Below are positions 35,146-58,167 of a DNA stretch of 64,000 nt, piece by piece. The position numbers were made by a program, and so were the translations under genes. The stretch's first letter is position 1. Every line of letters begins with the position of its first letter. Origin of the DNA: Bacteroidota bacterium (GTDB lineage: Bacteria > Bacteroidota > Ignavibacteria > Ignavibacteriales > Melioribacteraceae); contig JAEXUB010000108.1 of the NCBI GenBank assembly GCA_023453125.1, positions 4,694 to 68,693 of the forward strand, in the 5' to 3' direction. The notes below the pieces were generated by a model, which worked only from the letters and a program-made list of their open reading frames with translations, was not told the DNA's origin and ran no database searches.

Positions 35146-35146
35146 T

Positions 35147-40715: not shown

Positions 40716-40718
40716 ACA

Positions 40719-41801
40719 TTAAGCTTTTTTACATGGGAGCTTTACCCTAACAATGGTGTGGCTCTTCTTTTTGCTTTCAATCTCCAGGCTTCCTCCGTGC
40801 ATCTGAACAATATTTTTCACTATTGCGAGTCCGAGACCATTCCCCTGCTGACTGAAATCCTCCCTGCTGAACTGCTGGAATAATCCGATCTGCTCAATTT
40901 CCGAGTCAGTCATTCCTATTCCGGAATCTTTAATTTCGATTGTATATAATTCATCCGAACAGGTGCCGTTAACTTCAACACTGCTCCCCGCCTCGGAATA
41001 TTTTGCGCTATTTTCAAGTATCTCTTTCAGCATTCTGACCATTTGCAGGTCGTCTACTTCAATTTCTGCAGGTAAGACTGAAATCTTTATATCGTCCGAA
41101 CGTTCCCTCAGCATATAATGATTTTCTATTATGCTGTCTATTAACATCTTATCAAAAAGCACTTCATCAGTATTTTTTCTTTCTGACGGTTTGGAACGGG
41201 CAACATTCAACTCTGCATAGGCTATAAATTTTTCTATCCTGTTATGAAGTCTGTTTGCAGACCAGAGAATTCTCTCTACCATTTCCTTTAATTGAGTCTT
41301 TTCCATCTCCTCAATTCCTTCAAGCACCAGATGAGAATAGCCGATTATTGAAACAAGGGGAGTCCTTAATTCGTGAGGTATATACATATTGATATTCTTG
41401 ATAAGAGAATTGAACTGGTCCCTGACTTCTTTCTGTTTTTCCATTCTGATTTCAATAGCCTTAAGAAGATCGGACGACGAAAAAGGTTTTGTAATATAAT
41501 CATCAACTCCCAGATTGAGGCCGGCCCTAATTGATGAAAGATCAGAATGCGCCGTAAGGAAAATAAATGGAATGAACTTTGTATCGAAATCGGATTTAAC
41601 ATATTTATGGAACTCATATCCGTTCATCTTAGGCATCATAATATCGCAGATTATGAGATCCGGTTTAGTCTGTTTAAGCAGAGCAACCCCTTCGGTACCG
41701 TCACTGCCGCACATAACCTCATATCCTTCAGAAGAAAGAAGTTCGGTTAAATTATTCATAATATTTTCATCATCTTCAACTACAAGTATTACCTTTTTCA
41801 T
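40719..41801 (-). CDS. REC-HisKA-HATPase fusion (response regulator / histidine kinase)
   Basis: The N-terminal REC has VVEDDE, ICDIMMPKMNG and TKPF. The H-box is IPHELRTPLVSIIGYS. The HATPase region has GNGLGLAIV. Confidence 0.88.
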   Translation of the reverse strand: MKKVILVVEDDENIMNNLTELLSSEGYEVMCGSDGTEGVALLKQTKPDLIICDIMMPKMNGYEFHKYVKSDFDTKFIPFIFLTAHSDLSSIRAGLNLGVDDYITKPFSSSDLLKAIEIRMEKQKEVRDQFNSLIKNINMYIPHELRTPLVSIIGYSHLVLEGIEEMEKTQLKEMVERILWSANRLHNRIEKFIAYAELNVARSKPSERKNTDEVLFDKMLIDSIIENHYMLRERSDDIKISVLPAEIEVDDLQMVRMLKEILENSAKYSEAGSSVEVNGTCSDELYTIEIKDSGIGMTDSEIEQIGLFQQFSREDFSQQGNGLGLAIVKNIVQMHGGSLEIESKKKSHTIVRVKLPCKKA

Positions 41802-41809
41802 TACGACCT

Positions 41810-43663
41810 CTAATTAAGATTAGTATTGAGAGGCAGTTCAACTGTAAACCGGCTCCCTTCCCCTGTTTTACTCTCCAGTTTTATAGTGCCCCGATGCAGT
41901 TCTACAGATCTTTTAACTATAGACATACCGAGTCCGGTACCCCTTATGGCTCCGATATTGCTCCCCCTGTCAAACGGGTCAAAGATTCTTTTCTGATCTT
42001 CTTCCGGTATTCCTATTCCGTTATCGGAGACTTCAAATATAATTGTTCCATCACCGTCTTTCGCTTCAAAACTAACCAGGCCTCTTTCTCCGGAAAACTT
42101 AATGGCATTGGAAAGAAGATTGTTAAGAATATGTTTTAAAAGCTTTTCGTCAATTTCATAAATTTTTCCTGCAAGCCTGTAATGGAAATCGAGTATGTTG
42201 TTTTCATTTGTAAGTGTTTTTGCCTCATCAACAATAACTGAACATAGATTTTCAAGATCTACCGGCTGGGGGTCAAAACTTATTTTTCTTGCCTCGGCCC
42301 TGCTTACCGTAAGAACGTCATCCATTAATCCGGTTAGATATTTTATGGCTTTTTTAATCCTGTCCGTGTGCACAAAAAATCTTTCTTTGTCTCTGTTTTC
42401 CCAATGTTTTTCAGAAAGCTCAGTGGAAGAAAGAATAGTTGCAAGCGGAGTTCTGAATTCGTGGGAGGCGGTTGAAATAAATTCCGATTTAAGCGCATTT
42501 AATTCCTTTTCTTTCTCCAGAGCCGCAATTACCTTTTCTTCAGCTTCTTTCTGCTTAAGAATTTCTTTTTGCAGAAGATGATTTAGTTCTTCAAGACTCC
42601 TGGTTCTCTCCGAGACTATGTTCTCCAAATGAAGCCTGTAATCGGCAAGTTCCTTTTCTATCTTCTTTCTTTCCGAAATGTCTTTTGCAATTCCAATTAC
42701 TCCTTTTGGTGAGCCGTCCTCTTTGTAAAGCAGCGAGAGACTTAGTTCTGCATAGAACCTGTCCCCGTTCTTTTTAACAAATATATATTCATCATTTGAA
42801 TGAGTTCCTTCAACAATGGCTTTTTCAAGATTTCTGTATATCTTATCCAATTCCCCCTGTTCAATAATTTCTCTGGCACTATGGCTCATCAATTCCATTT
42901 TTGATGAATAACCATGCATTTTGGCTGCGGCACCGTTAGCAAGAATTATATCCCCCTCAATGCTGAGAAGCAAAATAGCATCCGGCGAAGTTTCAATAAG
43001 TGTACGGTACTTCTCTTCGCTTTCTTTCAATAAAGCTTCCGCCTTCTTCCTTTCGGTAATATCAATACTTGCGCCCCGGTATCCAACGAGTTCATTCTTT
43101 GAAGATATAACAGGGGAAGCGTTCGATTCAAGAATAACATCGTTTCCGTTTTTATGCGAGAATACTGCCACATAACTTTTCAAAGAGTTTCTATTTAAAA
43201 ATGCCTGTTCAAGATCCAATCTTAAAGTGGGATTCTTTTCAAGATTAAGCAGGTCGTAAATTGTTTTATTTTCTATTACCTCTTCAGGGCTATATCCAAG
43301 TATCACCTTAACGACCGGATTAACGTATGCAAATTTACCGCCTATCCCTATTTCCCAGATTATTTCACCCGAATTTTCTGCAATCTGCTTAAAACGGTCT
43401 TCGGATCTCCTGAGAAGTTTTTCCGAACCGATAATCTGTTTAACCCTTCGGGCAATCAGAAAATATAGGAGAGTTGAGGTAAAAAGAATAAAGAAAAACC
43501 CCTTTAGCATTGCGATTTTAATAATTACAGAAGGATTTGAAGTAAATAACTCTACAACCGAGTCGGATAGAAAAATCCAGAGACTGCCGAAAAAGACGTA
43601 AACAGCAACAATTTTTACAACTGCCAGCCGGTCTTTATACTTAAGTGTAGCATTCTTATTCAA
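41810..43663 (-). CDS. Membrane PAS sensor histidine kinase (2 TM, 2 PAS, HisKA, HATPase)
   Basis: Two N-terminal hydrophobic helices, two PAS/PAC modules ending in DITERKKAE and DISERKKIE, the H-box STASHEFRTPLATI, and GTGLGMSIV. Confidence 0.9.
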   Translation of the reverse strand: MNKNATLKYKDRLAVVKIVAVYVFFGSLWIFLSDSVVELFTSNPSVIIKIAMLKGFFFILFTSTLLYFLIARRVKQIIGSEKLLRRSEDRFKQIAENSGEIIWEIGIGGKFAYVNPVVKVILGYSPEEVIENKTIYDLLNLEKNPTLRLDLEQAFLNRNSLKSYVAVFSHKNGNDVILESNASPVISSKNELVGYRGASIDITERKKAEALLKESEEKYRTLIETSPDAILLLSIEGDIILANGAAAKMHGYSSKMELMSHSAREIIEQGELDKIYRNLEKAIVEGTHSNDEYIFVKKNGDRFYAELSLSLLYKEDGSPKGVIGIAKDISERKKIEKELADYRLHLENIVSERTRSLEELNHLLQKEILKQKEAEEKVIAALEKEKELNALKSEFISTASHEFRTPLATILSSTELSEKHWENRDKERFFVHTDRIKKAIKYLTGLMDDVLTVSRAEARKISFDPQPVDLENLCSVIVDEAKTLTNENNILDFHYRLAGKIYEIDEKLLKHILNNLLSNAIKFSGERGLVSFEAKDGDGTIIFEVSDNGIGIPEEDQKRIFDPFDRGSNIGAIRGTGLGMSIVKRSVELHRGTIKLESKTGEGSRFTVELPLNTNLN

Positions 43664-43753
43664 GCAAAATATTCCGCCGATTAAAACTATGAAATTAAAA
43701 ATTTACCCTTTAAAATCAAAGACATTACCATCCCGATATTTACTTCTCTATTT

Positions 43754-46700
43754 CTATTCAGCCGCCTGGAATCTGAGGGTGAAAATTGTACCGATTCCTA
43801 TTTCGCTTTCAACAGAAATTGAACCGTTAAGCAGCTCGGTATATTTTTTTGCAATCGAAAGTCCAAGCCCGGTCCCCTGGAATTCCCTATTAATTCCTTC
43901 ACTCACCTGTCTGAATTCCTCAAATATTATTCCCAGGTTGTCTTTGTCAATTCCAATTCCGGTATCTTTAATCCTTATAAATACATTATTTCCTTCTTTA
44001 CCAGCTTCAATTGAAACCGAACCCCGTTCAGTAAATTTGATTGCGTTATTAACGAGATTCTCCAGAATTACCGCAAAGAATGATGGATCGGAGTTTATAT
44101 ACATCCCGTCGGGACACTGTAAAACCATTTCAATGTGCTTATCAATGGCAGCACCGCGGAACATTTTCTCTATTGTTTCAAGTTCATCTTTTACATCGAG
44201 CCGTTTTAAAACTATCTGATATTTCTCCGATTCTATCTTTGTGAAATTTAAAATCATATTGAGTGTATTAAGAAGCCTTTTGCCGGATCTTTTAATTCCC
44301 TTAGACATTTCGACAAGCTCTTCATCTTTCAGGATTTCCGAAAGCAGATCGGAATAGCCGAGAATTCCAATTAATGGAGTTCTAAGTTCGTGGCTCATAT
44401 TGGCAAGAAAGAGATCCTTGGTTTTATTGGCTTCTTCTGCCTTATTCTTTGCATCCATTAACTGTTCAAGAATCATTTTCCTGTCTGTTATATCTTCTTT
44501 TACGGCAATAAAATGCGTTATCCTGTTCAGGTCATCCTTAATTGCTGATATAGAAGCCGATTCCCAGTAATATGTTCCGTCCTTTTTTCTGTTCCGGAAT
44601 TGCCCTTTCCATAGTTTTCCGTCAAGAATTGTATTCCAAAGCTCCTTATATTCTTCGCTGGTTTTATTCCCCGAACTAAAAATTCTAGGATTTTTTCCAA
44701 TCACTTCATCATAAGAAAATCCGGTAATCTCCAGCAGGTAAGGATTAACATATTCAATAGTTCCTTTGACATCGGTAATAACTATTGAAACCGGGCTCTG
44801 TTCCGTGGCTTTAAATAATTTTTTTAAGTTTTCCTCATAGAGTTTCCTGGCAGTAACATCATGGGCTACTCCCTGTAAACCGCATACTTTACCGTTTTTA
44901 TAAACCGGATATTCAAAAACCTCTAAAAGTATTTTAGATCCGGATGCGTGTTTTACTTCAAGCACCATGGAGTTCTCTGTAAAGTCCCCGTTAAGGTGCC
45001 TGTGAGTCAATAATTTGGCGTTTTCATTAATTATACTATCCGTCAGGAACCAGCCCTTTTCCATAAGCCATAATTCAACCGGATAGCCTGTAATTTTTTC
45101 AACTGTAGAAGAGACGTAAGTAGTATTTGCATTCTCATCCTGCGTGTAAAAGAATAAATTGGGAGTGCCTTCAATTATAGCCCTCATCCTCTCTTCACTT
45201 CTTAGAAGCGATTCCTGAGAGGCTCTTTCTTCCGTCTGGTCCCTGAATACAAGAACAACGCCGGTAATGTTTCCGTCCTTATCTCTGATAGGGGCTCCGC
45301 TGTCTGCAATAGGTCTTCTGCTCCCGTCTTTTGAAATAAGTATTGTGTGGTTTGCAAGTCCAACTACAACCCCTTCGTTAAGAACTCTGCTTACAGGGCT
45401 TTCAACTTTATTTCCGTTATCTTCGCAGATAATGTTAAATACTTCATCAAGGTATTTACCCTTTGCCTCTTCCTCTTTCCATCCGGTCAATCCCTCGGCA
45501 ATTGGATTAATCTGCCTTATGAGTCCCGATTTATCAGTGCTGATAACTGCATCACCTATACTGTAAAGAGTTGTATGCAGTTCCTCCTTCAGCTCCCACT
45601 GCAGTTTTTCTGCTTCTTTTCTCTCGGTAATATCTCTTGTAATGTTCAGTATATGGTTTACCCCTTCGAGCTGAATGATGGAAGCAGACATTAGCCCGTA
45701 TTTTATGGACCCATCCTTCATCCGGAAGCGTGCCTCAAGGTTATTAACCTGCCCCGATTTTGAAAGCCCTTCAATCAGTTTACTCCTGGATTCGGCATCG
45801 GCCCATATGCTGATTTCTGCTGAAGTGCGCCCAACCACTTCTTCTTCGGTATAACCTGTAAGCTGTGTAAAGCCGTTGTTAACTGAAACGTATAGCCCGT
45901 CCGATAAGCGGTTAATATTAACCGAATCGGGACTTGTATAGAAAGCTGTTCTGAATTTCTGTTCGCTCTGCAGAATATTCTGTTCCGCTTTTTTTCTTTC
46001 TGTAATGTCCCTTATAACCGAAAGAAGGTATTTTTTTTCATTCAGATTTATTAAAGTGACGGAAATTGAACCGGTAAAAACAGATCCGTCTTTTTTCCTA
46101 AAATCGGACTCGTAATCATAAACCGAACCGGAACGGTTGATTGCATCAACAATTTTGTTTCTCCCCTCTTTCTCAATCCATAAACCGGCATCAACCGTAG
46201 TCCTGCCAATCAGTTCAGATGCCTTGAAGCCGAAAATCTGCTCGTTGCATTCTATAATCATTCCGGTTTCAATTTCAGTTATAAAAATAGCATCCCCGAT
46301 TGTTGCAAAAATTGACCTGTAAATCTCTTCCCGAATTTTTAATTCTTTTGCGGTTTTTTTCGAATCGGATATATCTTCAACAGTGCCCTCGTAATAAAGA
46401 GTAACACCGAATTCATCCTTAACGGATTTTGAACTTTCCCTAATAAAAAGTTCCGTACCGTCTTTTTTATACCAGACATCTTCCCAACCCCTGAGAGTCC
46501 CTTTTTCTTCAACCAGCTTTTTAAAATCAACCCTGCGGTAATTTGGTTCATACCCGTCTTCTTCCAGGTTGCGGTTAGAAAAATCCTCAAATGAATCATA
46601 ACCGAGCATTTTTATGAGGGTAGGATTTGCCAGCAGAATCCTCCCGTCGGGTGTGGTTCGGTAAAATCCGATATTATCATTTTCATAAAGGCTTCTGAAA

Positions 46701-47176
46701 GTTCTCTCTCTTTCGAGGAGCAGCTGTTCATCCTTTTTCTGTTTCGTTATATCTTCAACATTGCTTAAAATCAGGTCTTCATCATTTTGATTTATCAATA
46801 CGCCTGATACTTTTACTGTAATTGTATCCCCCCCGGCGGTAATTATCTTTCTCTCATAAGGGCCGTAAGAACCGTTTTCTTTGAGATTTTTCATCTGCTC
46901 GTTATCCGATTCATCGAAGCCTTCCGGGCTGACTCCCTTATAATTTAATTTGCGCAGCTCAGATAAATCATAACCCAGCATTTTAATTAGAGCTTTATTG
47001 GCATCAACAAATGCCCCGTCCAAACGGTTTATGGAAATTCCTATGGGAGATTTTTCGAAAAGCAGCCTATTGAATTTTTCACTCTCGCGCAGTTTGGCTA
47101 TAGTCATCTGCTGATCTTCCAGAAGATTAAGAAAAGCAGACTTGAGGTTTTCTGAATCCATGTTGTTTTTTGCCAT
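43754..47176 (-). CDS. Soluble multi-PAS sensor histidine kinase (about seven PAS/PAC, HisKA, HATPase)
   Basis: No TM segment. About seven PAS/PAC modules have recurrent DIT(E/D)RK linkers. The H-box is ANMSHELRTPLIGILGYS, with GTGLGLSIA in the HATPase region. Confidence 0.9.
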   Translation of the reverse strand: MAKNNMDSENLKSAFLNLLEDQQMTIAKLRESEKFNRLLFEKSPIGISINRLDGAFVDANKALIKMLGYDLSELRKLNYKGVSPEGFDESDNEQMKNLKENGSYGPYERKIITAGGDTITVKVSGVLINQNDEDLILSNVEDITKQKKDEQLLLERERTFRSLYENDNIGFYRTTPDGRILLANPTLIKMLGYDSFEDFSNRNLEEDGYEPNYRRVDFKKLVEEKGTLRGWEDVWYKKDGTELFIRESSKSVKDEFGVTLYYEGTVEDISDSKKTAKELKIREEIYRSIFATIGDAIFITEIETGMIIECNEQIFGFKASELIGRTTVDAGLWIEKEGRNKIVDAINRSGSVYDYESDFRKKDGSVFTGSISVTLINLNEKKYLLSVIRDITERKKAEQNILQSEQKFRTAFYTSPDSVNINRLSDGLYVSVNNGFTQLTGYTEEEVVGRTSAEISIWADAESRSKLIEGLSKSGQVNNLEARFRMKDGSIKYGLMSASIIQLEGVNHILNITRDITERKEAEKLQWELKEELHTTLYSIGDAVISTDKSGLIRQINPIAEGLTGWKEEEAKGKYLDEVFNIICEDNGNKVESPVSRVLNEGVVVGLANHTILISKDGSRRPIADSGAPIRDKDGNITGVVLVFRDQTEERASQESLLRSEERMRAIIEGTPNLFFYTQDENANTTYVSSTVEKITGYPVELWLMEKGWFLTDSIINENAKLLTHRHLNGDFTENSMVLEVKHASGSKILLEVFEYPVYKNGKVCGLQGVAHDVTARKLYEENLKKLFKATEQSPVSIVITDVKGTIEYVNPYLLEITGFSYDEVIGKNPRIFSSGNKTSEEYKELWNTILDGKLWKGQFRNRKKDGTYYWESASISAIKDDLNRITHFIAVKEDITDRKMILEQLMDAKNKAEEANKTKDLFLANMSHELRTPLIGILGYSDLLSEILKDEELVEMSKGIKRSGKRLLNTLNMILNFTKIESEKYQIVLKRLDVKDELETIEKMFRGAAIDKHIEMVLQCPDGMYINSDPSFFAVILENLVNNAIKFTERGSVSIEAGKEGNNVFIRIKDTGIGIDKDNLGIIFEEFRQVSEGINREFQGTGLGLSIAKKYTELLNGSISVESEIGIGTIFTLRFQAAE

Positions 47177-48141: not shown

Positions 48142-48801
48142 ATGAAAAACGACGAAAAAAGCATAGTCAGGGTTCCAGAACCCACATTAAGAAGACTTCC
48201 AAAGTATATTAACTTACTTGAAAAGTTAAAAAGAGAATCTGTCCAGTTTGTTTCAAGCAATCTGATATCGGAAGAACTGGGGCTGGATTCGATTCAGGTA
48301 AGAAAAGATTTGGCATTAACCGGAATTTCGGGTAAACCAAAACTCGGATTTAATCTTGGCGAACTCTTGCAGGCTTTATACCACACCCTTAACTGGGATA
48401 ATTCCAACGATGCTTTCCTGGCAGGAGCCGGAAGTCTTGGCTCTGCCCTTTTGGGTTATAAAACTTTCAAAGACTACGGGCTGAATATTATTGCCGCATT
48501 TGATGTCAATCCATCCCTAACCGGGACGAAGATTAATGAGACGGAGATTCTTCCGATTGATAAACTTGCTGAAATGATAACCCGGATGCATGTTAATATC
48601 GGGGTAATATGCGTACCTGCCGATGAAGCCCAGCAAATAGCTGACTTAATGGTCCAGGGGGGAATAAAGGCAATATGGAATTTTGCCCCGGTTCACCTTA
48701 AAGTACCCGCAGGCATTATTGTCGAGAATGCGCAACTCTCACAATCGCTTGGGGTTCTTACACATAAATTAGCCGAAAGACTAAAACCAAATACAAAATA
48801 A
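48142..48801 (+). CDS. rex: Redox-sensing transcriptional repressor Rex
   Basis: The N-terminal winged helix has PEPTLRRLPKYINLL. The Rossmann block is LAGAGSLGSALLGY. At 219 aa the length is typical for Rex. Confidence 0.9.
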   Translation: MKNDEKSIVRVPEPTLRRLPKYINLLEKLKRESVQFVSSNLISEELGLDSIQVRKDLALTGISGKPKLGFNLGELLQALYHTLNWDNSNDAFLAGAGSLGSALLGYKTFKDYGLNIIAAFDVNPSLTGTKINETEILPIDKLAEMITRMHVNIGVICVPADEAQQIADLMVQGGIKAIWNFAPVHLKVPAGIIVENAQLSQSLGVLTHKLAERLKPNTK

Positions 48802-48824
48802 AAGCTATAAACTACGGAGATAAT

Positions 48825-49346
48825 ATGAACAGAAATGATGTTAGTGATTCCGGAATGGCGAGGAAGTTTGACAGAGTATGTGCTATACTTGAACAGAACA
48901 ATTACTCCCCTTCAAAACTTATTCCCATTCTTCAGGCAATTCAGGAAGAATACCGATACCTGCCCGAGAAAATTCTCACTTTCGTTGCTACTTCTCTCGG
49001 GATTCCCCCGGCAAAGGTTTACGGCGTTGCCACATTCTATTCCCATTTTGCACTTAAAGCCAAAGGAAAATATGTAATTAAAATATGCGACGGCACAGCA
49101 TGCCATGTGCGCAATTCTATTCCTATTGTTGAAGCACTAAGAAAACGGCTTGAATTATCGGAAACAAAAAACACTACTGATGATATGATGTTTACAATCG
49201 AGACTGTTTCCTGCCTCGGTGCCTGCGGCCTGGCCCCCGTTGTAGTAATTAATGACGACGTTCATTCTCTTATGACCCCCGAAAAGGCTCTTGTTGTGAT
49301 TGAAAATATTGTAAAAGAAGAGGAGAGTGAATATGCACACAATTAA
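48825..49346 (+). CDS. hydC: [FeFe] hydrogenase subunit HydC (NuoE-like, [2Fe-2S])
   Basis: NuoE/24-kDa pattern: LIPILQAIQEEYRYLP, CDGTACHV, SCLGACGLAP. Confidence 0.88.
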   Translation: MNRNDVSDSGMARKFDRVCAILEQNNYSPSKLIPILQAIQEEYRYLPEKILTFVATSLGIPPAKVYGVATFYSHFALKAKGKYVIKICDGTACHVRNSIPIVEALRKRLELSETKNTTDDMMFTIETVSCLGACGLAPVVVINDDVHSLMTPEKALVVIENIVKEEESEYAHN

Positions 49347-51228
49347 CCTGGAACAAATAAAAAACGATTATCAGTCCGCCGTTAAGGTGACTAAGAGAAG
49401 GATAATAATATGCGCCGGAACTGGCTGCGTTGCCAACGGTTCACTTAAAATATTTTCCGAATTCAGCCGCCAGATTGAGCTTAAGGGACTGAATCATCTT
49501 GTCGAAATCTCACTTAAGGAAGAGCCTGTTGATCATATACATCTTTCGGGAAGCGGATGTCAGGGCTTCTGCCAGATGGGACCCCTTGTTTCTATTGAAC
49601 CGGACAGCATACTCTACGTAAGAGTGAAAATTGAAGATGTTAAAAGAATTGTCGAAGAGACTCTGTGCAGCAACAAGGTAATTGAAGAACTCCTGTATAC
49701 CGACCCGACAAACGGGAGGAAATGCAAAGGGACAAATGAAATTCCTTTCTATAAAAGACAAAGCAGAATTGTTCTGAATAACTGCGGCAGAATAAATCCA
49801 GAAGATATAAACGAATATATCGCCCTGAGCGGATACAGCGCCGCACAGAGAGCATATCTGGAGATGAGCCCTTTGGATATCTGCGAAGAAATTGCATTCA
49901 GCGGATTGCGCGGCAGAGGGGGCGGCGGATTTCCTACAGGAAAAAAATGGGAACTTACCAGAATTCAGAAATCGGAAAAGAAATTTGTTATATGCAACGG
50001 GGATGAAGGGGACCCGGGGGCTTTTATGGACAGAAGCGTTATGGAGGGGAACCCCCATTCCGTTATTGAAGGAATGATGATAGCGGCCCGGGCAATAGGA
50101 GCCGATGAAGGATATATCTACGTAAGAGCGGAATATCCGCTCGCAGTAAAGCGTGTAAGAAAAGCAGTTGAACAAGCCGAAAAGCTTAACCTTCTGGGGA
50201 ATAATATCTTCGGATCGGGGCTCAATTTCACCATTCAGGTTATGGAAGGCGCCGGCGCATTTGTATGCGGCGAGGAGACTGCTTTAATGGCTTCCATAAT
50301 GGGTGAAAGAGGAATGCCTAATCCAAAACCTCCTTTCCCTGCTCAATCGGGATTATTCGAAAAACCGACCGTTATAAATAATGTTGAGACGCTTAGCACA
50401 GTTCCTTTGATTATTCTTAAAGGGGCAAACAGCTTTTCATCACTTGGCACTCAGAAGTCCGCCGGCACAAAAACTTTTGCGCTCACCGGGCACGTAGCTA
50501 ATACCGGGCTTATTGAAGTACCATTCGGAACTACTCTGAGAGAGATTATTTACAATATCGGCGGAGGCATTCTGGATGAAAAAGGAAACATTACTCACGA
50601 AGGATTTAAATCAGTCCAGATTGGAGGGCCTTCCGGCGGATGCCTGACCGAAGAGCATCTCGATATGCCTCTCGATTTCGATTCACTAACCGGAATTGGA
50701 GCGATGGTTGGTTCGGGCGGGCTTGTTGTAATGAACAAACAGACTTGCATGGTTTCAATTGCGCGCTACTTTATGCAGTTCACTCAGAATGAATCGTGCG
50801 GCAAATGCGTACTCTGCCGCGAAGGAACTAAACAGATGCTTGCACTTCTTGATGACATTATCGAAGGAAGAGGTTCCGAAGAAACGATTATGCTTCTGGA
50901 GGACCTGGCACACGCTGTTAAGAAAGGCTCACTGTGCGGGCTCGGAAAGACTGCGCCGAATCCGGTTCTTTCAACACTCCATCATTTCCGCGAAGAATAT
51001 GATGCTCACGTCCTGCAGCACAGATGCCCATCCAAAAAGTGCAAAGCACTAATGGCTTACGAAATTGACCCGGTTAAGTGCAAAGGATGCGGAGTATGCC
51101 TTAAGAAATGCCCGGTAGATGCTATAAGCGGTAACAGGAAAGAACCCCATTATATAAATGAACAACTATGCATTAAGTGCGGCGCATGCATTGAAGCCTG
51201 CAGATTGAATGCGGTTATAGGAGGATAA
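49333..51228 (+). CDS. hydB: [FeFe] hydrogenase subunit HydB (NuoF-like NAD(H)/FMN subunit with extra Fe-S domains)
   Basis: N-terminal thioredoxin-like 2Fe-2S (CAGTGC...CQGFCQMGP). The NuoF blocks are GLRGRGGGGFPTGKKW, NGDEGDPGAF and ESCGKCVLCREG. The C-terminus has 2x[4Fe-4S] (CKGCGVCLKKCP, CIKCGACIEAC). ATG 49333 is preceded by GGAG. Confidence 0.9.
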   Translation: MHTINLEQIKNDYQSAVKVTKRRIIICAGTGCVANGSLKIFSEFSRQIELKGLNHLVEISLKEEPVDHIHLSGSGCQGFCQMGPLVSIEPDSILYVRVKIEDVKRIVEETLCSNKVIEELLYTDPTNGRKCKGTNEIPFYKRQSRIVLNNCGRINPEDINEYIALSGYSAAQRAYLEMSPLDICEEIAFSGLRGRGGGGFPTGKKWELTRIQKSEKKFVICNGDEGDPGAFMDRSVMEGNPHSVIEGMMIAARAIGADEGYIYVRAEYPLAVKRVRKAVEQAEKLNLLGNNIFGSGLNFTIQVMEGAGAFVCGEETALMASIMGERGMPNPKPPFPAQSGLFEKPTVINNVETLSTVPLIILKGANSFSSLGTQKSAGTKTFALTGHVANTGLIEVPFGTTLREIIYNIGGGILDEKGNITHEGFKSVQIGGPSGGCLTEEHLDMPLDFDSLTGIGAMVGSGGLVVMNKQTCMVSIARYFMQFTQNESCGKCVLCREGTKQMLALLDDIIEGRGSEETIMLLEDLAHAVKKGSLCGLGKTAPNPVLSTLHHFREEYDAHVLQHRCPSKKCKALMAYEIDPVKCKGCGVCLKKCPVDAISGNRKEPHYINEQLCIKCGACIEACRLNAVIGG

Positions 51229-51229
51229 A

Positions 51230-53260
51230 GTGAAAAATAAAACGATGATGATTAATGGCAGAGAGGTTTCATTTAAAGATGAAAGAAACCTCCTTGAAGT
51301 AATTAGAAAAGCAAACATAGAAATTCCCACTTTCTGCTACCATTCCGAACTTAGCACTTACGGGGCATGCCGAATGTGCATTGTTGATATTGAAGGAAGA
51401 GGCATAATTACATCCTGTACTACCATTCCCGAAGAAGGAATGGTGGTTAAAACACATACAAAAGAAGTAAGAGACGTTAGAAAAATTGCCCTGGAACTGC
51501 TTCTTGCAAATCACGAGCAGAAATGCACTTCGTGCATTAAAAGCGCTAACTGCAAACTTCAGGATCTGGCTAATAAATTAGGAATTGACAAGGTAAGATA
51601 TAAGAAAACAGAGAACCATATTCCGCCGGATTTATCGTCAGACGCTCTTATGAGAGATCCGAATAAATGCATTCTATGCGGCGACTGCGTAAGGGCATGC
51701 TACGAAATACAGGGAATCGGCGCAATCGACTTTACCAACAGAGGCTCTCAGGTTACTGTATCGCCGGCTTTCGGCAAAGATCTTGCATCGGTTGAATGCG
51801 TTGACTGCGGCCAGTGCGCGCGCGTATGCCCTACGGGAGCCATTACTCCCAAATTCGATATTGAAAGAGTCTGGAAGGAAATTGATAATCCGAAGAAAAC
51901 AGTTGTTGCACAGATAGCACCAGCCGTGAGAGTCGCTATTGGAGAAATGTTCGGATTAAAGCCGGGAACCCAGTCCATAGGGCAAATAGTGGCCGCGCTA
52001 AAAATGTTAGGTTTCGATAGAGTGTTCGATACTTCATTCGCTGCAGATTTAACGGTACTTGAAGAGACATCGGAATTTCTTGAAAGGAAATCTAACAGCG
52101 AAAAACTTCCTTTATTTACATCCTGCTGCCCCGGCTGGGTTAAGTTTGCCGAACAGCACTATTCGGAGTTTCTGCCTAATCTATCAACCTGCAAGTCGCC
52201 GCAGCAGATGTTCGGCGCCGTAGCAAAAGAAATTCTTCCTGAACAGCTCAATGTAAAAAAAGAAAACCTGGTTGTAGTTTCCATTATGCCCTGTACTGCG
52301 AAGAAGAGCGAAGCAGCACGCCCTGAATTTTCCGAAGGGGATATTAAGGAAGTTGACATTGTTTTGACCACGCAGGAACTTGCCTCTATGATTAAACAGG
52401 CAGGCATCCGTTTTGAAAATTTGACTCCTGAATCTCTCGACCTCCCTATGGGATTTAAAACAGGGGCCGGGGTTATCTTCGGTAACAGCGGCGGCGTGAG
52501 CGAAGCGGTTTTGAGATACGCTTACGAAAAGGTAAACGAAGTTAAACTTGATTCTTTTGAATTTACCGAAACCAGAGGGGAGGATTCAATCCGCGAGCTG
52601 GAAGTAAATTTGAACGGCACTAAGGTAAAACTCGCAATTGTAAGCGGTCTCAAAAATGCGAAAAATCTGCTCGATAAGATCCGTAAAAAAGAGGCCGCGT
52701 ATGATATTATTGAGGTTATGGCCTGCCCCGGCGGATGCATTGGAGGTGCCGGACAGCCTTATATTTTCGAGGCAAATGCAAAAGAAGAAAGAACAAAAGG
52801 GCTATATGACTCGGATAAAACGCTCCAGCTTCATAAATCGCAGGAAAATCCATACATAGCAAGTTTATATAAGACCCTTCTCGTTGAGCCGGGAAGTCAC
52901 AAGGCACACAAATTGCTTCATACTAATTACAAAAACAGAAAGCGCATATTCGAATCGGAATTAAGCTTTATTGGATGCCAGGATTCCCATAAATTGGAAA
53001 TCAAAGTATGCGTGGGTACCAACTGTTATTTGAAAAACTCTCAAAAACTGATATCGCGTCTTTTGAAATATGTTGATGAGAAAGGGTTAAAAAACGCGGT
53101 GGATGTAAGCGCAACTTTCTGTATGGAAAAATGCGGAGAGGGACCCAATGTACTAATCGGAGGGGAGCATATTCCCCAGTGCACATTTGAAAAAGCAATT
53201 GATGCGCTTAACAGGAAAATGACTCCCGATTTGAAAGCAATAAAAATGGAAGCAAAATAA
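51230..53260 (+). CDS. hydA: [FeFe] hydrogenase catalytic subunit HydA (group A3-type, with C-terminal NuoE-like 2Fe-2S domain)
   Basis: H-cluster motifs are intact: TSCCPGW, MPCTAKKSEA, EVMACPGGCIGGAGQP. The N-terminus has 2Fe-2S and 4Fe-4S domains. The C-terminus carries CVGTNC...CMEKCGEGP. GTG 51230 lies 5 nt after AGGAGGA. Confidence 0.92.
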   Translation: MKNKTMMINGREVSFKDERNLLEVIRKANIEIPTFCYHSELSTYGACRMCIVDIEGRGIITSCTTIPEEGMVVKTHTKEVRDVRKIALELLLANHEQKCTSCIKSANCKLQDLANKLGIDKVRYKKTENHIPPDLSSDALMRDPNKCILCGDCVRACYEIQGIGAIDFTNRGSQVTVSPAFGKDLASVECVDCGQCARVCPTGAITPKFDIERVWKEIDNPKKTVVAQIAPAVRVAIGEMFGLKPGTQSIGQIVAALKMLGFDRVFDTSFAADLTVLEETSEFLERKSNSEKLPLFTSCCPGWVKFAEQHYSEFLPNLSTCKSPQQMFGAVAKEILPEQLNVKKENLVVVSIMPCTAKKSEAARPEFSEGDIKEVDIVLTTQELASMIKQAGIRFENLTPESLDLPMGFKTGAGVIFGNSGGVSEAVLRYAYEKVNEVKLDSFEFTETRGEDSIRELEVNLNGTKVKLAIVSGLKNAKNLLDKIRKKEAAYDIIEVMACPGGCIGGAGQPYIFEANAKEERTKGLYDSDKTLQLHKSQENPYIASLYKTLLVEPGSHKAHKLLHTNYKNRKRIFESELSFIGCQDSHKLEIKVCVGTNCYLKNSQKLISRLLKYVDEKGLKNAVDVSATFCMEKCGEGPNVLIGGEHIPQCTFEKAIDALNRKMTPDLKAIKMEAK

Positions 53261-53263
53261 AAA

Positions 53264-55036
53264 ATGTCCCCGAAATCATTCGACAGACAGATAATATTTA
53301 CAAACAAGGCACGGTGCCGCGACTGTTACAGATGCTTGAGAAACTGTCCGGTAAACGCTATAAAGCTGAAAGATCATCAGGCATCTGTTGATCCTGAAAG
53401 ATGCATCTTATGCGGTACTTGCTTAAAGGAATGCCCGCAGGAAGCAAAACAGTTCAGACGCGACCTCGACCTGGTAAAATCCCTAATCGGGGAAAACGAA
53501 AGGGTTGCGGTTAGCATTGCCCCCTCATTTCCCGCGTTATTTGAAGATTGGCAGTCTGAAAGAATTCCTTCTGTATTGAGAAAACTCGGATTCGATTATG
53601 TAAGTGAAACCGCAGAGGCCGCTTTCTATGTCGCGGGAGAAACATGTTCTCATTATTTGAATGATAAGAGTATTTCCTGTTATGCAACCGCATGTCCGGC
53701 GTTTGTAAATTACATCGAAAAATTTCAGCCGGCGCACGTAAAAAATCTCGCGCCTGTTGTATCCCCGATGATTGCGCACGCAAAGAGGCTAAAGAAAAAA
53801 CTTGCCCCCGATGCAAAAGTGGTTTTCATTGGCCCGTGCCTTGCAAAAAAAGGGGAGGCTGAAAGACCTGAATATTACGGATTGGTTGACGGAGTATTAA
53901 CTTTTACTGAATTGTTGGAATGGATAGAAGAAGAAAAAATCGACTTTAAGATGCTTGAAGCAGGTGATTTCGATGACAAAGTGGCAGGCGACTCCCGTCT
54001 TTTCCCACTGGCGGGAGGCCTGTCAAAGACAGGAGACCTTAATCCGGATAATCTTAACAGCAATGTTTTCTCGATTACCGGAGTGAATGAAATCTCAGAC
54101 ATAATAGATTCGCGCGCCAATTCAAAATCGCGCGTTCTGATTGAGCCCCTCGTTTGCGCTTCGGGATGCGTTAACGGCCCGGGGATGCCCAAGCATCAGA
54201 GCATTTTCGCAAATAAGGAAAATGTAATTAATTATGCCCTAAAGAGAGAATACGAAATGAACGCACCGGCAAATGATGTGAGCCTGAGAACAACATTTTC
54301 CAATTCTTCTGCTATATCAGAACCCGAATTCCCGGAAGAGGAAATAAGAAGAATACTCGAGCAGACAGGAAAGCTTTCGGAAGAAAATCAGCTTAACTGC
54401 GGAGCCTGCGGCTATTCATCATGCATTGAAAACGCAAGGGCAATTCTTATGGGAATGGCAGATAACGACATGTGCATCCCCCATATGAGAAGGCTTGCCG
54501 AGCAGAGAACAGACCGCATAATTGAAACAAGCCCCAACGGCATTGTGATTTTAGATTCGGAAATGTGTATACTTCATATGAATCCCGCATTTAAAAAATT
54601 CTTCAAATGCACTAACTCCATTATCGGGAAGAGAATCTCATACCTTATGGACCCGGAGCCTTTTATACGGCTTACCGGTGATGAGGAGGAAAAAATTGAG
54701 CTGATTTTAAAACATGAGAATTATCATATTACATGCCATCAGCTTCTTTACAAATTAAAAGAAGAGAAACAGTATGTCGGAATATTTGTTAACATCACCA
54801 AGAATATGGCTGATGCAGAAAAACTGGATTTATTACGAGAAAAAACAATCCACAAAGCAGAAGAGTTGCTCCAGCACCAGCTCGAAATGGCCCAGCAGCT
54901 CGCAAAACTCCTCGGTGAAAATACAGCCCGCGGAGAAGAGTTAGTTGAAAATCTTCTAACCCTTACACAGGATGAAAAAACAAAAAAGACCTCTAACAAG
55001 AATAACTGGCTATGGGATATCTACACCTCGAAGTAA
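53264..55036 (+). CDS. hydS: Sensory [FeFe] hydrogenase-like protein HydS (group C): ferredoxin + degenerate H-domain + Cx2Cx4Cx16C + PAS
   Basis: There are 2x[4Fe-4S] motifs (CRDCYRCLRNCP, CILCGTCLKECP). The H-cluster motifs are altered as in sensory enzymes: ATACPAF (proton-relay Cys to Ala), IGPCLAKKGEA (Met to Gly) and EPLVCASGCVNGPGMP. These are followed by CGACGYSSC-x16-C, then a PAS (NGIVILDSEMCILHMNPAFKKFF) and a coiled-coil tail. Confidence 0.85.
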   Translation: MSPKSFDRQIIFTNKARCRDCYRCLRNCPVNAIKLKDHQASVDPERCILCGTCLKECPQEAKQFRRDLDLVKSLIGENERVAVSIAPSFPALFEDWQSERIPSVLRKLGFDYVSETAEAAFYVAGETCSHYLNDKSISCYATACPAFVNYIEKFQPAHVKNLAPVVSPMIAHAKRLKKKLAPDAKVVFIGPCLAKKGEAERPEYYGLVDGVLTFTELLEWIEEEKIDFKMLEAGDFDDKVAGDSRLFPLAGGLSKTGDLNPDNLNSNVFSITGVNEISDIIDSRANSKSRVLIEPLVCASGCVNGPGMPKHQSIFANKENVINYALKREYEMNAPANDVSLRTTFSNSSAISEPEFPEEEIRRILEQTGKLSEENQLNCGACGYSSCIENARAILMGMADNDMCIPHMRRLAEQRTDRIIETSPNGIVILDSEMCILHMNPAFKKFFKCTNSIIGKRISYLMDPEPFIRLTGDEEEKIELILKHENYHITCHQLLYKLKEEKQYVGIFVNITKNMADAEKLDLLREKTIHKAEELLQHQLEMAQQLAKLLGENTARGEELVENLLTLTQDEKTKKTSNKNNWLWDIYTSK

Positions 55037-56160
55037 TAACAGAACAGATAGCTAAGAAGCCGGAACATCCAAGCGGCGACGTTATAAGCACAGAAAGGGA
55101 TAATAATTCCATTATTCACATTCTGTGCGACGGCGCCGGCTCGGGCATTAAAGCCAATATTACGGCAACAATGTATGTCTCGAGAATAAAAGAATTAATC
55201 AGACGCGGTTTTTCAAAGCGAGAAGCATTTGCCAAAATTGTAAACTCGGTTGAAGAAAGCAAAAAGAAGGAACTCCCCTGTGCTTTCTTTACTCTGGTGC
55301 GGATTCTCAACGACGGCGTTGCTTCTATTCTGATGTATGATATGCCCGAACCTCTTTTTGTATGTCAGCGTTATTCAACCCCGTTAAAGAGCAGCAGCCA
55401 GATGCTGTTCGGAGGGCTTGTACGGGAATCTAACTGTTCTCTTAATCTGGGAGAAGGAATTCTGATATTCAGCGATGGTATTACACAGGCAGGCATTGGA
55501 AAAGGAATAAATAACGGATGGGGCATTGAAGGTTTAAATAAATTTGTGAATGAATGCCTCCGCGGCGGTGCAAATATAACTGAGCTGCCTAAATTAATCA
55601 TAAGCGAAACGAAGAAGCTATGGAAACATAAATGCGAGGATGACTGCTCCGTTTCCCTTATCTACTGCCGTAAAGGAAGAGTAATTAATATCCTCAGCGG
55701 CCCCCCTGCCAATCCAGACGATGACCATGCAGTTGTGAACAAATTCCTTGGTATGGATGGATTAAAAATTATCTGCGGGGCAACAACGGCAAAAATTGCC
55801 GCCCGGGTAATGAACAAACAACTCGAAATTAATGATGAATTTGCAAGCATAATTTCTCCGCCGAATTATGAGATTGAAGGAATCGGGCTCGTTACCGAAG
55901 GAGCAGTAACATTAAACCAGCTTTATAATGTAATGGGAGAAGACCTTTCCCTTCTTGAAAAAGGGAGCCCTGTAACAGCACTTTCGGCCTGGCTCAATGT
56001 TGCTGACAGAATTAACTTCTTTGTCGGGACTGCCGAGAATCCTGCCGGCTCAGACATAAGTTTTAAACAAAGCGGCATTCTTCTGCGCAAAAAAATCATT
56101 AAGCTTATTATTGAGAAATTGAGAGAGGAAGGAAAATTTGTTTATCTGGAAGAATTTTAG
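55012..56160 (+). CDS. PP2C/SpoIIE-type serine phosphatase with unassigned ~160-aa C-terminal domain
   Basis: The N-terminal ~215 aa carry HPSGDVIS...ILCDGAGSGIKAN...IFSDGITQAG...DDCSVSLI (PP2C/SpoIIE-like metal-binding Asp pattern). The gene overlaps hydS by 25 nt in another frame. Confidence 0.7.
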   Translation: MGYLHLEVITEQIAKKPEHPSGDVISTERDNNSIIHILCDGAGSGIKANITATMYVSRIKELIRRGFSKREAFAKIVNSVEESKKKELPCAFFTLVRILNDGVASILMYDMPEPLFVCQRYSTPLKSSSQMLFGGLVRESNCSLNLGEGILIFSDGITQAGIGKGINNGWGIEGLNKFVNECLRGGANITELPKLIISETKKLWKHKCEDDCSVSLIYCRKGRVINILSGPPANPDDDHAVVNKFLGMDGLKIICGATTAKIAARVMNKQLEINDEFASIISPPNYEIEGIGLVTEGAVTLNQLYNVMGEDLSLLEKGSPVTALSAWLNVADRINFFVGTAENPAGSDISFKQSGILLRKKIIKLIIEKLREEGKFVYLEEF

Positions 56161-56190: not shown

Positions 56191-56220
56191 AAAAAAGTCC
56201 GGCCTATAGCCGGACTTTTA
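56191..56220. terminator. Bidirectional rho-independent terminator between the convergent PP2C and REC-CheW genes
   Basis: A6, then GTCCGGC, a CTATA loop, GCCGGAC, then T4. The stem is flanked by an A-run and a T-run, so it can act on either strand. Confidence 0.8.
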
Positions 56221-56223
56221 ATT

Positions 56224-58167
56224 TCAGCCGTTTAGCTTATGTAACGGGGTTGCAAGGACTTCAACGTCAAGAAGTATATAAACGGAATCTTCGAGCCTTA
56301 CCACCGCCTTAATAAAATTGGCTTTCTGCTCCTGCCCGAACGAAGGGGCCATATCAATATCATCTGCTTTTACATCACATACAACATCAACCTCGTCAAC
56401 TATAAAGCCGACTCTCATTTTAACGCCGTCCAATTCCTCCTCAAGAATTACGATTCTGGTCTTTGACCCATATTCTGTATCCGGCATACCAATCTTAAGC
56501 CTAAGGTCAATAACAGGAACCACTGTTCCGCGCAGGTTTATTACCCCCCTTACAAAATCGGGAGTGTTAGGCACTTTTGTTATCGGAACAAGTTTAATAA
56601 TCTCAATAATCTTTAGAATTTCAATTCCGAATTTTTCTTTTCCTAAAGAGAATCTCAGATATTTCCCTTCCATATTGAGTAGTTCTTTAGTCTTAATATC
56701 TCCAAAGGCTTCCTCGCTTCTTCCGGCAAGTTTTTCAATATTCTGGGCAATATACTGCTCGCTTACCCTGCTTTTTGCAGCAGCCTTATCCTGATCCGAA
56801 CAGGCTTCATCCGCAAAGCGGCTGTCGACAAATTCATTCAGATTAATTATTGAACCAATACCCATTTTATCGTGCATATAATGCTGAATAAAATTGAGGT
56901 CTTCTTTAACCGGATAAAGGTTATTTGTCTTAATCCCCTTCGGCTCAGTAAGAACATTTTTTAGAATAGGTACTTTAAGCCCGAGTTCTTTTTTAGGGTC
57001 GAGGAATTCAACCGCAATTTCAGCTGCGTATCCCGGTTTCTGTTCAATTATTTTTCCCGCCTGAACAAGGTATTTAACAAATTCGTTAACAGCCTGAGGA
57101 TAATTATTTACAAAATCCTCCTGAACGGCGAGAACACAGCAGGGATGGTTTTCCCAAATTTCACTCGAAAGGAACTGCAGCTCTGCATTTCCCTGAGCAA
57201 TGGATTTTGTTCCGAGAGGCTCTGCAACCATAAATCCGCTTGCATCCGGATTTCCGGCCATAAATTCCCCCATTTTAATCGGCGCAACGACCTCGAACGG
57301 AACATCCACACCGCTCTGCCCGGTTACTCCCGGATTCAAACCCTGATTCTTAAAATATAAATGTCCGAGCATATTATGTATTGACATAGTGTGAGGGATA
57401 TAGAATGATTTATTTTTAAAATACTCAATCCCCTTTGTATCGTTTCCCATTTTATTTTTAACGCAGATGCTTCCGTTCCTGTGCGCAAAAAGAATCATCT
57501 TTAAGGGCACGCCGTAATTAAAAAGATCCATAGCCAGCGGTGCAAGAATAAATGCCGCATCTGCAGTTCCCTGCTCAAGCGATTTTGCAACGGCGTTCCA
57601 GCTTGGGAGGCATTCGGTTTCAAGTTCAAAATGTTTTGTTGTAATTTCATTCCTTTTAATAAGGTTTTTAAGAACGCCGAGTGTAAGATGGTCTGTGATT
57701 TGAATATGAATAGCCTTTATAATTACCTTACCGGAAGGGGCGATTCTTGATTCGCGTGAAATCGGCTTTTTCTCTTCTCCTTTTATTCCAAACGCCTCAT
57801 TTATTTTCTCATTAAGCTCATCTTTATTGAACGGCTTTGATATAAAACTGCTTACGCCGGCTTCAATAGCCTTCTCTACCTCTTTTTTCTCTCCTCTTCC
57901 GGTAGCCATTAAAAAAGGAATTTTACCCGTGCCCGTATTTTCCCTTACAAAACGGAGCAACTCAAAGCCATCCATAACCGGCATATTCCAGTCGCTTATA
58001 ATCAAATCATAATTCGGGTCCTTCTTAAGAATTTCTACCGCCTCACTCCCATGCTCTGCTTCGGTAACATTATTAAAGTCGAGCGAATTTAATGTTTTGA
58101 TTTCCATCTTCCTCATAACGGAAGCGTCTTCTACCAAAAGAATTTTCATATTCTTATTGAGTGCCAT
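56224..58167 (-). CDS. REC / NrtA-NasS-like (NitT/TauT-type) solute-binding domain / CheW fusion protein
   Basis: aa ~7-125 form a CheY-like REC (MKILLVED, IISDWNMPVMDG, SKPF). aa ~145-470 are NrtA-like (GFMVAEPLGTKSIAQG, ENHPCCVLAV). aa ~497-640 are CheW (VPNTPDFVRGVINLRGTVVPVIDLR). There is no signal peptide or TM segment. The start is either 58167 or Met7 (58149). Confidence 0.8.
   Translation of the reverse strand: MALNKNMKILLVEDASVMRKMEIKTLNSLDFNNVTEAEHGSEAVEILKKDPNYDLIISDWNMPVMDGFELLRFVRENTGTGKIPFLMATGRGEKKEVEKAIEAGVSSFISKPFNKDELNEKINEAFGIKGEEKKPISRESRIAPSGKVIIKAIHIQITDHLTLGVLKNLIKRNEITTKHFELETECLPSWNAVAKSLEQGTADAAFILAPLAMDLFNYGVPLKMILFAHRNGSICVKNKMGNDTKGIEYFKNKSFYIPHTMSIHNMLGHLYFKNQGLNPGVTGQSGVDVPFEVVAPIKMGEFMAGNPDASGFMVAEPLGTKSIAQGNAELQFLSSEIWENHPCCVLAVQEDFVNNYPQAVNEFVKYLVQAGKIIEQKPGYAAEIAVEFLDPKKELGLKVPILKNVLTEPKGIKTNNLYPVKEDLNFIQHYMHDKMGIGSIINLNEFVDSRFADEACSDQDKAAAKSRVSEQYIAQNIEKLAGRSEEAFGDIKTKELLNMEGKYLRFSLGKEKFGIEILKIIEIIKLVPITKVPNTPDFVRGVINLRGTVVPVIDLRLKIGMPDTEYGSKTRIVILEEELDGVKMRVGFIVDEVDVVCDVKADDIDMAPSFGQEQKANFIKAVVRLEDSVYILLDVEVLATPLHKLNG

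Follow-up and report, generated by a model that had tools for sequence, protein, structure and literature searches.

To our knowledge, current descriptions of chemosensory systems place all sensing in the chemoreceptors and regard CheW as a passive scaffold. The established example of a coupling protein that can be phosphorylated is CheV, in which CheW is combined with a receiver domain (REC), and a survey of CheA proteins states that CheA 'lacks a sensor (input) domain' (PMC10542144). A precedent for ligand sensing by a binding-protein fold inside the cell is provided by the cytoplasmic NrtA-like domains of CmpC and NrtC (PMC13287603). Here we analyzed a gene on the minus strand of a 64,000-nucleotide (nt) stretch of DNA, hereafter the window, from a Bacteroidota bacterium of the family Melioribacteraceae (contig JAEXUB010000108.1). 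The gene encodes a protein of 647 amino acids (aa) in which a CheY-like receiver, a domain resembling the solute-binding proteins (SBPs) of NitT/TauT-family transporters and a CheW domain follow each other in a single chain. We propose, with moderate confidence, that this protein is an array coupling protein with two inputs, namely phosphorylation and a cytoplasmic ligand, which alter the coupling between receptors and CheA. An intracellular ligand of the metal or sulfur type, and not nitrate, may in this way tune the chemoreceptor array directly. No paper on the three-domain protein was found, nor any that combines the Pfam families NMT1_2 and Response_reg, and the two systematic papers on CheW architectures excluded rare architectures. 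The combination of REC and SBP, hereafter the cassette, is not mentioned in what a term search covers of the CheA survey (PMC10542144) and of a companion paper on CheW.

Architecture and distribution of the three-domain protein

The open reading frame (ORF) starts with ATG and runs without interruption. Pfam assigns to its product, from the N- to the C-terminus, Response_reg (residues 9-122, 2.8e-25), NMT1_2 (residues 180-385, 3.5e-24) and CheW (residues 503-638, 5.3e-37), all with scores above the gathering threshold. An AlphaFold2 model made from 30 orthologues contains three folded domains, with a mean predicted local distance difference test (pLDDT) value of 86.3 and a predicted template-modelling (TM) score of 0.78. 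The parts of the gene are the following.

56224..58167, minus strand: whole gene for the REC / Cys-Cys-cleft SBP-like / CheW protein, 647 aa (ORF, Pfam, full-length homologues, AlphaFold2)
57802..58143, minus strand: CheY-like receiver, residues 9-122 (Pfam, NCBIfam CheY)
57727..57801, minus strand: linker between REC and SBP-like domain, residues 123-147, variable and partly disordered (low conservation; pLDDT below 50 at residues 131-137)
56770..57726, minus strand: type-II binding-protein-like domain, predicted cytoplasmic, residues 148-466, of the 3UN6-like Cys-Cys clade (Pfam NMT1_2; fold match to 3un6)
Within the preceding domain, putative pocket residues: D159, H160, W190, H229, H259, H264, A315, E316, H341, C343 and C344
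56668..56769, minus strand: helical linker between SBP-like and CheW domains, residues 467-500, its sequence and length varying among orthologues
56248..56667, minus strand: CheW domain, residues 501-640, with the conserved NLRG arginine R546 (Pfam)

A signal peptide is absent because the first strand of the receiver, which begins at residue 9, forms the N-terminus. The hydrophobicity peak (Kyte-Doolittle mean of 1.41 over 19 residues) lies under the value usual for a membrane helix, and the protein is predicted to be cytoplasmic. An earlier note, made from the letters of the window alone, had described an uninterrupted ORF of 647 codons lacking a signal peptide and transmembrane segments, with receiver, solute-binding and CheW domains in this order and with the motifs GFMVAEPLGTKSIAQG and ENHPCCVLAV. 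All of these statements were borne out, as was the remark that the arrangement REC-NMT1_2-CheW differs from the CheW-REC arrangement of CheV.

The receiver contains the putative phospho-acceptor D59, an acidic pocket formed by E13 and D14, the residues T89, F108 and K111, and the motif DWNMP, which is a hallmark of CheY. The acidic pocket and the conserved lysine that had been read from the sequence are thus intact, and E13, D14, D59, T89, K111 and DWNMP are invariant in the 30 orthologues. Moreover, DWNMP and the same five phospho-acceptor-site residues were kept in 26 of 26 sampled cassette members, whatever their output domain. The best NCBIfam match of the receiver is CheY (1.2e-30), with 106.3 bits under an equivalog cut-off of 189, and its model superimposes on Escherichia coli CheY (3chy) with a TM score of 0.94 at 41% sequence identity. 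Since the receiver resembles CheY in its fold and its DWNMP motif, while its score stays below the equivalog level and the protein is multidomain, we regard it as a CheY-family domain and not as CheY itself. The residues and the fold argue for phosphorylation by a CheA-type kinase and against the receiver type of NasT, the REC-ANTAR partner of the cytoplasmic nitrate/nitrite sensor NasS, to which the receiver had been assigned in the earlier note. Scans with Pfam and NCBIfam gave no ANTAR match in the protein.

The CheW domain scores 127 bits against PF01584 (cut-off 23.5) and resembles the E. coli CheW chains of solved core signalling unit structures (8c5v_E, 6s1k_C; 35-36% identity, TM scores of 0.82-0.85). 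The residues G514, G541, R546, P551, G587, V590 and D591 are invariant in the 30 orthologues. The NCBIfam CheW equivalog cut-off of 260 bits is not reached by this three-domain protein (93.6 bits). The C-terminal domain has a canonical CheW fold, for which binding to CheA P5 and to receptors is predicted. In the linker that precedes it, AlphaFold2 places helices at residues 470-481 and 489-495, with mean pLDDT values of 58 (residues 481-490) and 74 (residues 491-500).

A homologue search over 5.8 billion proteins gave at least 120 matches (clusters at 90% identity), and the figures given here refer to the matches listed. All but three of them carry the same three Pfam domains. Nearly all are full-length (about 100% of the length) and 55-95% identical, and they come from independent contigs of NCBI, JGI, ENA and Logan; the exact protein is present on five contigs and is encoded on a 115-kb metagenome scaffold. 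An assembly chimera or a frameshift, which the earlier note had listed among the findings that would refute it, was rejected because many contigs of independent origin encode full-length orthologues with this set of domains, and the ORF is not a junction artefact. Named carriers belong to the Ignavibacteriaceae, Melioribacteraceae, Bacteroidota, Rhodothermaceae, candidate division KSB1 and Desulfobacterota, the last including the cultured Desulfonema magnum. When one genome was scanned for each GTDB species, the three-domain gene turned up at 31 loci, among them those of Rosettibacter primus, Desulfacinum hydrothermale DSM 13146 and Desulfatibacillum alkenivorans DSM 16219, which together with Desulfonema magnum and a Melioribacter sp. 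are cultured carriers. At least 31 species of Ignavibacteriota, Bacteroidota, KSB1 and many Desulfobacterota thus possess the protein, and this protein type is widespread in anaerobes. The architecture had been called undescribed, which agrees with the absence of any paper found on it, but with matches in at least 120 clusters it is not rare. Database names of the homologues are 'chemotaxis protein CheW', 'response regulator' or 'ABC transporter substrate-binding protein' throughout.

The cleft of the middle domain and its candidate ligands

The closest fold to that of the middle domain is 3UN6, an ATP-binding cassette (ABC) transporter binding protein of Staphylococcus aureus that was deposited with zinc (TM score 0.89, root-mean-square deviation 2.5 Å). 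The fold matches that rank after it are NrtA, the regulatory domains of NrtC and CmpC, TauA, SsuA and Thi5. A profile of the clade to which the middle domain belongs matches 3UN6 with 3.8e-69, NrtC/CmpC with about 2e-29, NrtA with 3e-24 and SsuA with 1e-18, and NCBIfam returned for relatives of the domain only sub-threshold matches (SsuA-family and SaoX). C343-C344 align with the CC of 3UN6. Invariant in the 30 orthologues are H154, H160, H229, H259, H264, H269, H341, C343 and C344, and a constellation of D159, H160, W190, H229, S262, H264, A315, E316, P317, H341, C343 and C344 is common to REC-fused forms, to stand-alone cytoplasmic forms of about 310 aa and to secreted forms, which are the binding proteins of ABC importers. 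As fused and secreted forms have this pocket in common, the fused domain most likely binds the cargo of the transporters. We regard the middle domain as an offshoot of the Cys-Cys binding proteins of the 3UN6 type that resides in the cytoplasm.

In CmpC-CRD, nitrate is bound by Trp319, His408, Gly452 and Lys481, and the lysine sets the specificity, being Lys269 in NrtA and Lys481 in CmpC and replaced by Glu in the bicarbonate binder CmpA (PMC13287603). HMMER alignments map these ligands to W190 and H264, which are kept, to A315 (Gly to Ala) and to C344 (Lys to Cys), with C343 opposite Gly480. These data bear on the reading put forward in the earlier note, according to which a NasS/NrtA-type sensor of nitrate, nitrite or bicarbonate is joined to a receiver of the NasT type and CheW has taken over from ANTAR. 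The middle domain does share its Pfam family and fold class with NrtA, CmpA and the NrtC and CmpC regulatory domains, and it retains Trp and His from the nitrate pocket. However, the agreement with the nitrate ligands ends with these two residues: Gly has become A315 and the charge-complementing specificity lysine, which NrtC has in common with NrtA (Lys269) and CmpC (Lys481) and which is Glu in CmpA, has become Cys344, with Cys343 beside it, which makes sensing of nitrate or bicarbonate unlikely. In addition, the clade profile favours 3UN6 over the nitrate binders by forty orders of magnitude and the receiver is CheY-type. We consider this reading very improbable and assign the sensor to the 3UN6-like clade instead.

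A thiophilic metal, a metal-bound ligand or a sulfur ligand is more likely to occupy the cleft. The most economical interpretation of the residues is a thiophilic metal site, in which case the ligand would be either the metal itself or a small molecule held through it; that it is a sulfur species is a weak guess. Related proteins have been described in similar terms. The NitT/TauT binding proteins that are encoded beside clade B carbon monoxide dehydrogenase (CODH) resemble 3UN6 (PMC6344411, PMC13592312), and the metal site of these proteins was modelled with two Cys and one or two His (PMC13592312). SaoX also has a Cys-Cys pair in its cleft, for which binding of a metal or an organometallic compound has been proposed (Haft preprint).

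Based on these features, the proposed two-input coupling protein could work as follows. By homology, its CheW domain would dock between the receptor tips and CheA P5, and its D59, judging from the residues and from the genomic contexts given below, would be phosphorylated by a CheA-type, Hpt-containing kinase in a CheV-like manner. The middle domain, a presumed cytoplasmic copy of a NitT/TauT-family transporter binding protein with a conserved pocket, would bind a ligand in a cleft that keeps the NrtA-type Trp and His and in which Cys343-Cys344 and extra histidines stand in the place of the Gly-Lys of the nitrate binders. This cleft would close around a thiophilic metal ion, around a small molecule bound through such a metal, or around the substrate of the cognate importer. 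Ligand occupancy and phosphorylation would jointly modulate the receptor-CheA coupling that the CheW domain provides, so that the level of the ligand inside the cell could bias or adapt taxis without a dedicated chemoreceptor. Several points weigh against this proposal. Tight allostery onto CheW is not evident, because both linkers are variable and one is predicted to be disordered. An effector role fits as well as a sensor role, because the SBP-like domain stands last in the REC-SBP proteins and in the histidine kinase (HK)-REC-SBP protein P0137. The partner array is assumed, because the three-domain gene has no conserved che neighbours and the window contains no CheA or methyl-accepting chemotaxis protein (MCP). 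Finally, the zinc of the 3UN6 structure may stem from crystallisation or may be purely structural.

The cassette, its outputs and its genomic surroundings

An exhaustive HMMER search with residues 135-490 against 1.84 billion cluster representatives yielded 632 relatives, 79 of them below 1e-30. The SBP domain starts at about residue 140, directly behind the receiver, in nearly all strong matches, and at about residue 140-150 in most REC-fused relatives. In Pfam terms, the architectures comprise REC-SBP-CheW, SBP-CheW lacking a receiver, plain REC-SBP, REC-REC-SBP and tandem (REC-SBP)x2. Phosphatase or partner-switching outputs are found in REC-SBP-SpoIIE (PP2C), REC-SBP-HATPase_c_2-STAS and HATPase_c_2-REC-SBP-STAS, and kinase parts in REC-SBP-[H-kinase_dim, HATPase_c, CheW], with an optional further receiver at the C-terminus, and in HisKA-HATPase-REC-SBP; a REC-SBP-NIR_SIR fusion also occurs. 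The pocket constellation is kept in nearly all cassette members sampled. Rather than an ANTAR output swapped for CheW, as the earlier note had it, these data point to REC+SBP as a reusable, mobile input cassette for which CheW appears to be one of several outputs.

Three of these proteins (P0129, P0130 and P0132; locus L094, 861-4457) carry REC and the Cys-Cys domain ahead of H-kinase_dim, HATPase_c and CheW and have no Hpt; they consist of a CheA kinase core that bears its own REC+SBP cassette as a putative sensor. In another, P0139 (L095, 3187-5871), the cassette is joined to a ferredoxin-like half domain of nitrite/sulfite reductase and a 4Fe-4S/sirohaem domain, and the next gene encodes an Hpt-HATPase_c kinase. 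Unfused parts were found together in one operon at L088 (1-7683), where genes for REC-SpoIIE, HATPase_c_2-STAS, an Hpt protein, a single-domain receiver, DUF169 and the cytoplasmic SBP-like protein P0163 are located. The same SBP-like gene sits between DUF169 and PAS-MCP genes at L089 (1-4473). DUF169 directly adjoins cytoplasmic clade members in three independent contexts (L007, 11985-12857; L093, 5989-7943; L088, 4647-5546); the literature assigns it no function, and in Desulfovibrio, according to one paper, such a gene adjoins that of a TauE/SafE-like permease. Hpt-containing kinases adjoin cassette or related proteins at L088 and L095. These contexts together link the cassette to Che-type and partner-switching signalling.

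More tentatively, we suggest that REC plus the Cys-Cys-cleft SBP is an unrecognised cytoplasmic Che-type sensor cassette of anaerobes. It could pass a metal or reduced-sulfur signal to arrays through CheW and, in sister proteins, to an Hpt-less CheA core or to partner-switching phosphatases and kinases. If this were true, chemosensory sensing would extend beyond the chemoreceptors.

The range of outputs also bears on a simpler explanation, which is that the protein is only a CheV-like adaptor or phosphate sink whose middle domain is a structural zinc spacer or an oligomerisation module that senses nothing. The CheV precedent and the fully CheY-like receiver suit this explanation, receiver domains fused to CheA have been argued to be phosphate sinks (PMC10542144), and the Cys/His site may be a structural zinc site. 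Nevertheless, the whole canonical pocket, including Trp and His, is conserved jointly with the secreted transporter binding proteins, which disfavours an inert spacer, and the same cassette drives enzymatic outputs (PP2C and kinases) that require a signal. We therefore regard it as unlikely.

In a Desulfobacterales operon (L092, 8001-13240; also L038-L045), genes for a cytoplasmic SBP-like protein, an ABC ATPase, an SBP with a twin-arginine translocation (TAT) signal and a permease are followed by a terminal REC-SBP gene lacking CheW. Acyl-CoA dehydrogenase-like and ABC1/UbiB kinase genes lie upstream, and at L039 and L045 a gene resembling a PP-loop ATPase lies within two genes downstream of the operon. 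The Cys-Cys pair is lost in two operon-type REC-SBP representatives, P0159 and P0160, which have G-E and G-C. Two-domain REC-SBP proteins of this kind, which have no further output and terminate ABC importer operons, make an effector role of the SBP-like domain conceivable, in which the receiver, once phosphorylated by CheA, acts through this domain to bind and gate an ABC importer of the NitT/TauT family, much like the C-terminal domains in NrtC and CmpC, with CheW serving for localisation only and uptake being tied to chemotactic signalling. Such a role would be in line with P0137, in which the SBP-like domain is also the last, with the locking of transporter nucleotide-binding domains by CmpC-CRD (PMC13287603) and with the three-domain gene of Desulfonema, which adjoins a transporter of the same family. 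That locus (L003) is, however, the only one of the 31 three-domain loci with a directly adjacent same-family ABC operon. Furthermore, a domain tethered at a polar array would be poorly placed to gate dispersed transporters, and most cassette proteins have a recognised output domain C-terminal of the SBP-like domain. We thus think it improbable that the domain is such an effector, and retain the two-input coupling protein as the preferred reading.

All-against-all clustering of the ORFs at 43 loci revealed no universal neighbour and no conserved che neighbour of the three-domain gene. A two-domain rhodanese of about 280 aa (44-73% identical among loci) is encoded immediately next to the gene in 6 of the 31 loci that carry it. 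It lies upstream and divergent at L017, L021, L031 and L033 (Desulfobulbales-type), and downstream and convergent at L029 and L036 (Geopsychrobacteraceae). An Aminotran_5 gene is found downstream in two loci from two distant lineages, and a DUF169 gene in one. At the Desulfonema locus the importer genes follow directly downstream, and their TAT-signal binding protein also has HPCC. ABC ATPase genes occur up to seven genes away in 5 of the 31 loci, but they are mostly weakly related. If one were to guess, sulfur chemistry would be the theme suggested by the rhodanese, Aminotran_5, the NIR_SIR fusion and the anaerobic nature of the hosts.

In the window, the following two features flank the gene.

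56197..56215, no strand assigned: hairpin GTCCGGC-CTATA-GCCGGAC, with an A run on one side and a T run on the other, between convergent stop codons
58168..58397, minus strand: upstream region of 230 nt, containing the terminator of an M24 peptidase gene and weak sigma-70-like hexamers

The hairpin at 56197-56215 was found by direct reading of the sequence, being absent from the pattern-scan list; it is terminator-like on both strands and separates the gene from a convergent PP2C gene. On the other side, a strong hairpin with a T run (58375-58350, minus strand) ends the upstream M24 aminopeptidase gene. As these hairpins bound the gene on both sides it looks monocistronic, in agreement with the earlier note, which had also recognised the 230-nt upstream region and the bidirectional terminator. 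The promoter-like matches in the upstream region did not exceed the shuffled expectation, but the sigma-70 consensus may not suit Ignavibacteriota. A tblastn search of the window with the CheA core and the MCP signalling motif returned only generic HATPase and receiver matches and thus no che gene, as the note had stated.

Beyond the shared terminator, a co-directional block at 48142-56160 (plus strand) encodes a Rex-like regulator, NuoE-like, NuoF-like and HydA-like [FeFe] hydrogenase subunits, a HydS-like sensory hydrogenase that carries a PAS domain, and the PP2C protein, a SpoIIE phosphatase. This block represents an electron-bifurcating hydrogenase with a putative H2-sensing module. A functional tie between it and the three-domain gene was considered and rejected: we take the adjacency to be coincidental because the genes are convergent and the arrangement is unseen at the other 30 three-domain loci. 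Nevertheless, PP2C is among the fused outputs of the cassette in other proteins. At 35135-47176, 9-20 kb from the gene, large two-component genes are densely packed, including a 1537-aa ORF and one for a 1140-aa multi-PAS histidine kinase, and several of the ORFs match receiver or HATPase. An antisense ORF of 158 aa (56318-56794, plus strand) inside the CheW-coding region is almost certainly not a gene because of its Ser/Thr/Ile-rich, low-complexity composition.

Comparison with known systems

The protein does not have the architecture of CheV, stays below the equivalog thresholds for CheW and CheY, and lacks the ligand determinant of the NrtA family. Single-domain CheW resembles its C-terminal 140 aa, to which some 500 N-terminal residues with two signalling domains have been added. 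With the C-terminal domains of NrtC and CmpC and with NasS it shares the recruitment of a transporter binding fold to the cytoplasm as a putative sensor, with the pocket in the same place and the same Trp and His. In contrast to the Gly-Lys of their nitrate pocket, it has Cys-Cys, and the partners also differ, being REC and CheW here, an ABC ATPase in NrtC and CmpC, and the REC-ANTAR protein NasT in the case of NasS. Closest to its middle domain are the 3UN6- and SaoX-like binding proteins of NitT/TauT importers, which have the HPCC/CC motif, H229, H264 and the AEP loop in common with it. Whereas those are secreted or lipid-anchored parts of transport systems, the domain analyzed here is predicted to be cytoplasmic, is fused, and has the additional invariant residues H154, H160, H259 and H341.

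A CheW protein that bears a sensor, and sister CheA cores that do so, run counter to the view that sensing is confined to chemoreceptors. If the sensor role is true, a CheW with its own ligand domain and the cassette-bearing CheA cores would form a second entry point for signals, and movement could be directed by how much of a transported substrate is present in the cytoplasm. A soluble cytoplasmic copy that is easily expressed and screened would also offer a handle on the substrate of the orphan 3UN6-like Cys-Cys clade, including the neighbours of clade B CODH.

CheV of Bacillus, Helicobacter and Salmonella is like our protein in having CheW and a phosphorylatable CheY-like receiver in one chain and in being expected to reside in the array and to be phosphorylated by CheA. 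The order of its domains is opposite, CheW being N-terminal and REC C-terminal, whereas here an SBP-like domain of 320 aa lies between the two, and no sequence-level CheV model was matched. The REC-PAS-GGDEF and REC-GAF-HD-GYP regulators follow the same logic, in that phosphorylation and a small-molecule sensor domain control a C-terminal output, but in the present case the putative sensor has the Venus-flytrap fold of a binding protein and the output, CheW, is a non-catalytic scaffold. In its presumed working mode, the protein is best compared to a CheV combined with a REC-sensor-output regulator.

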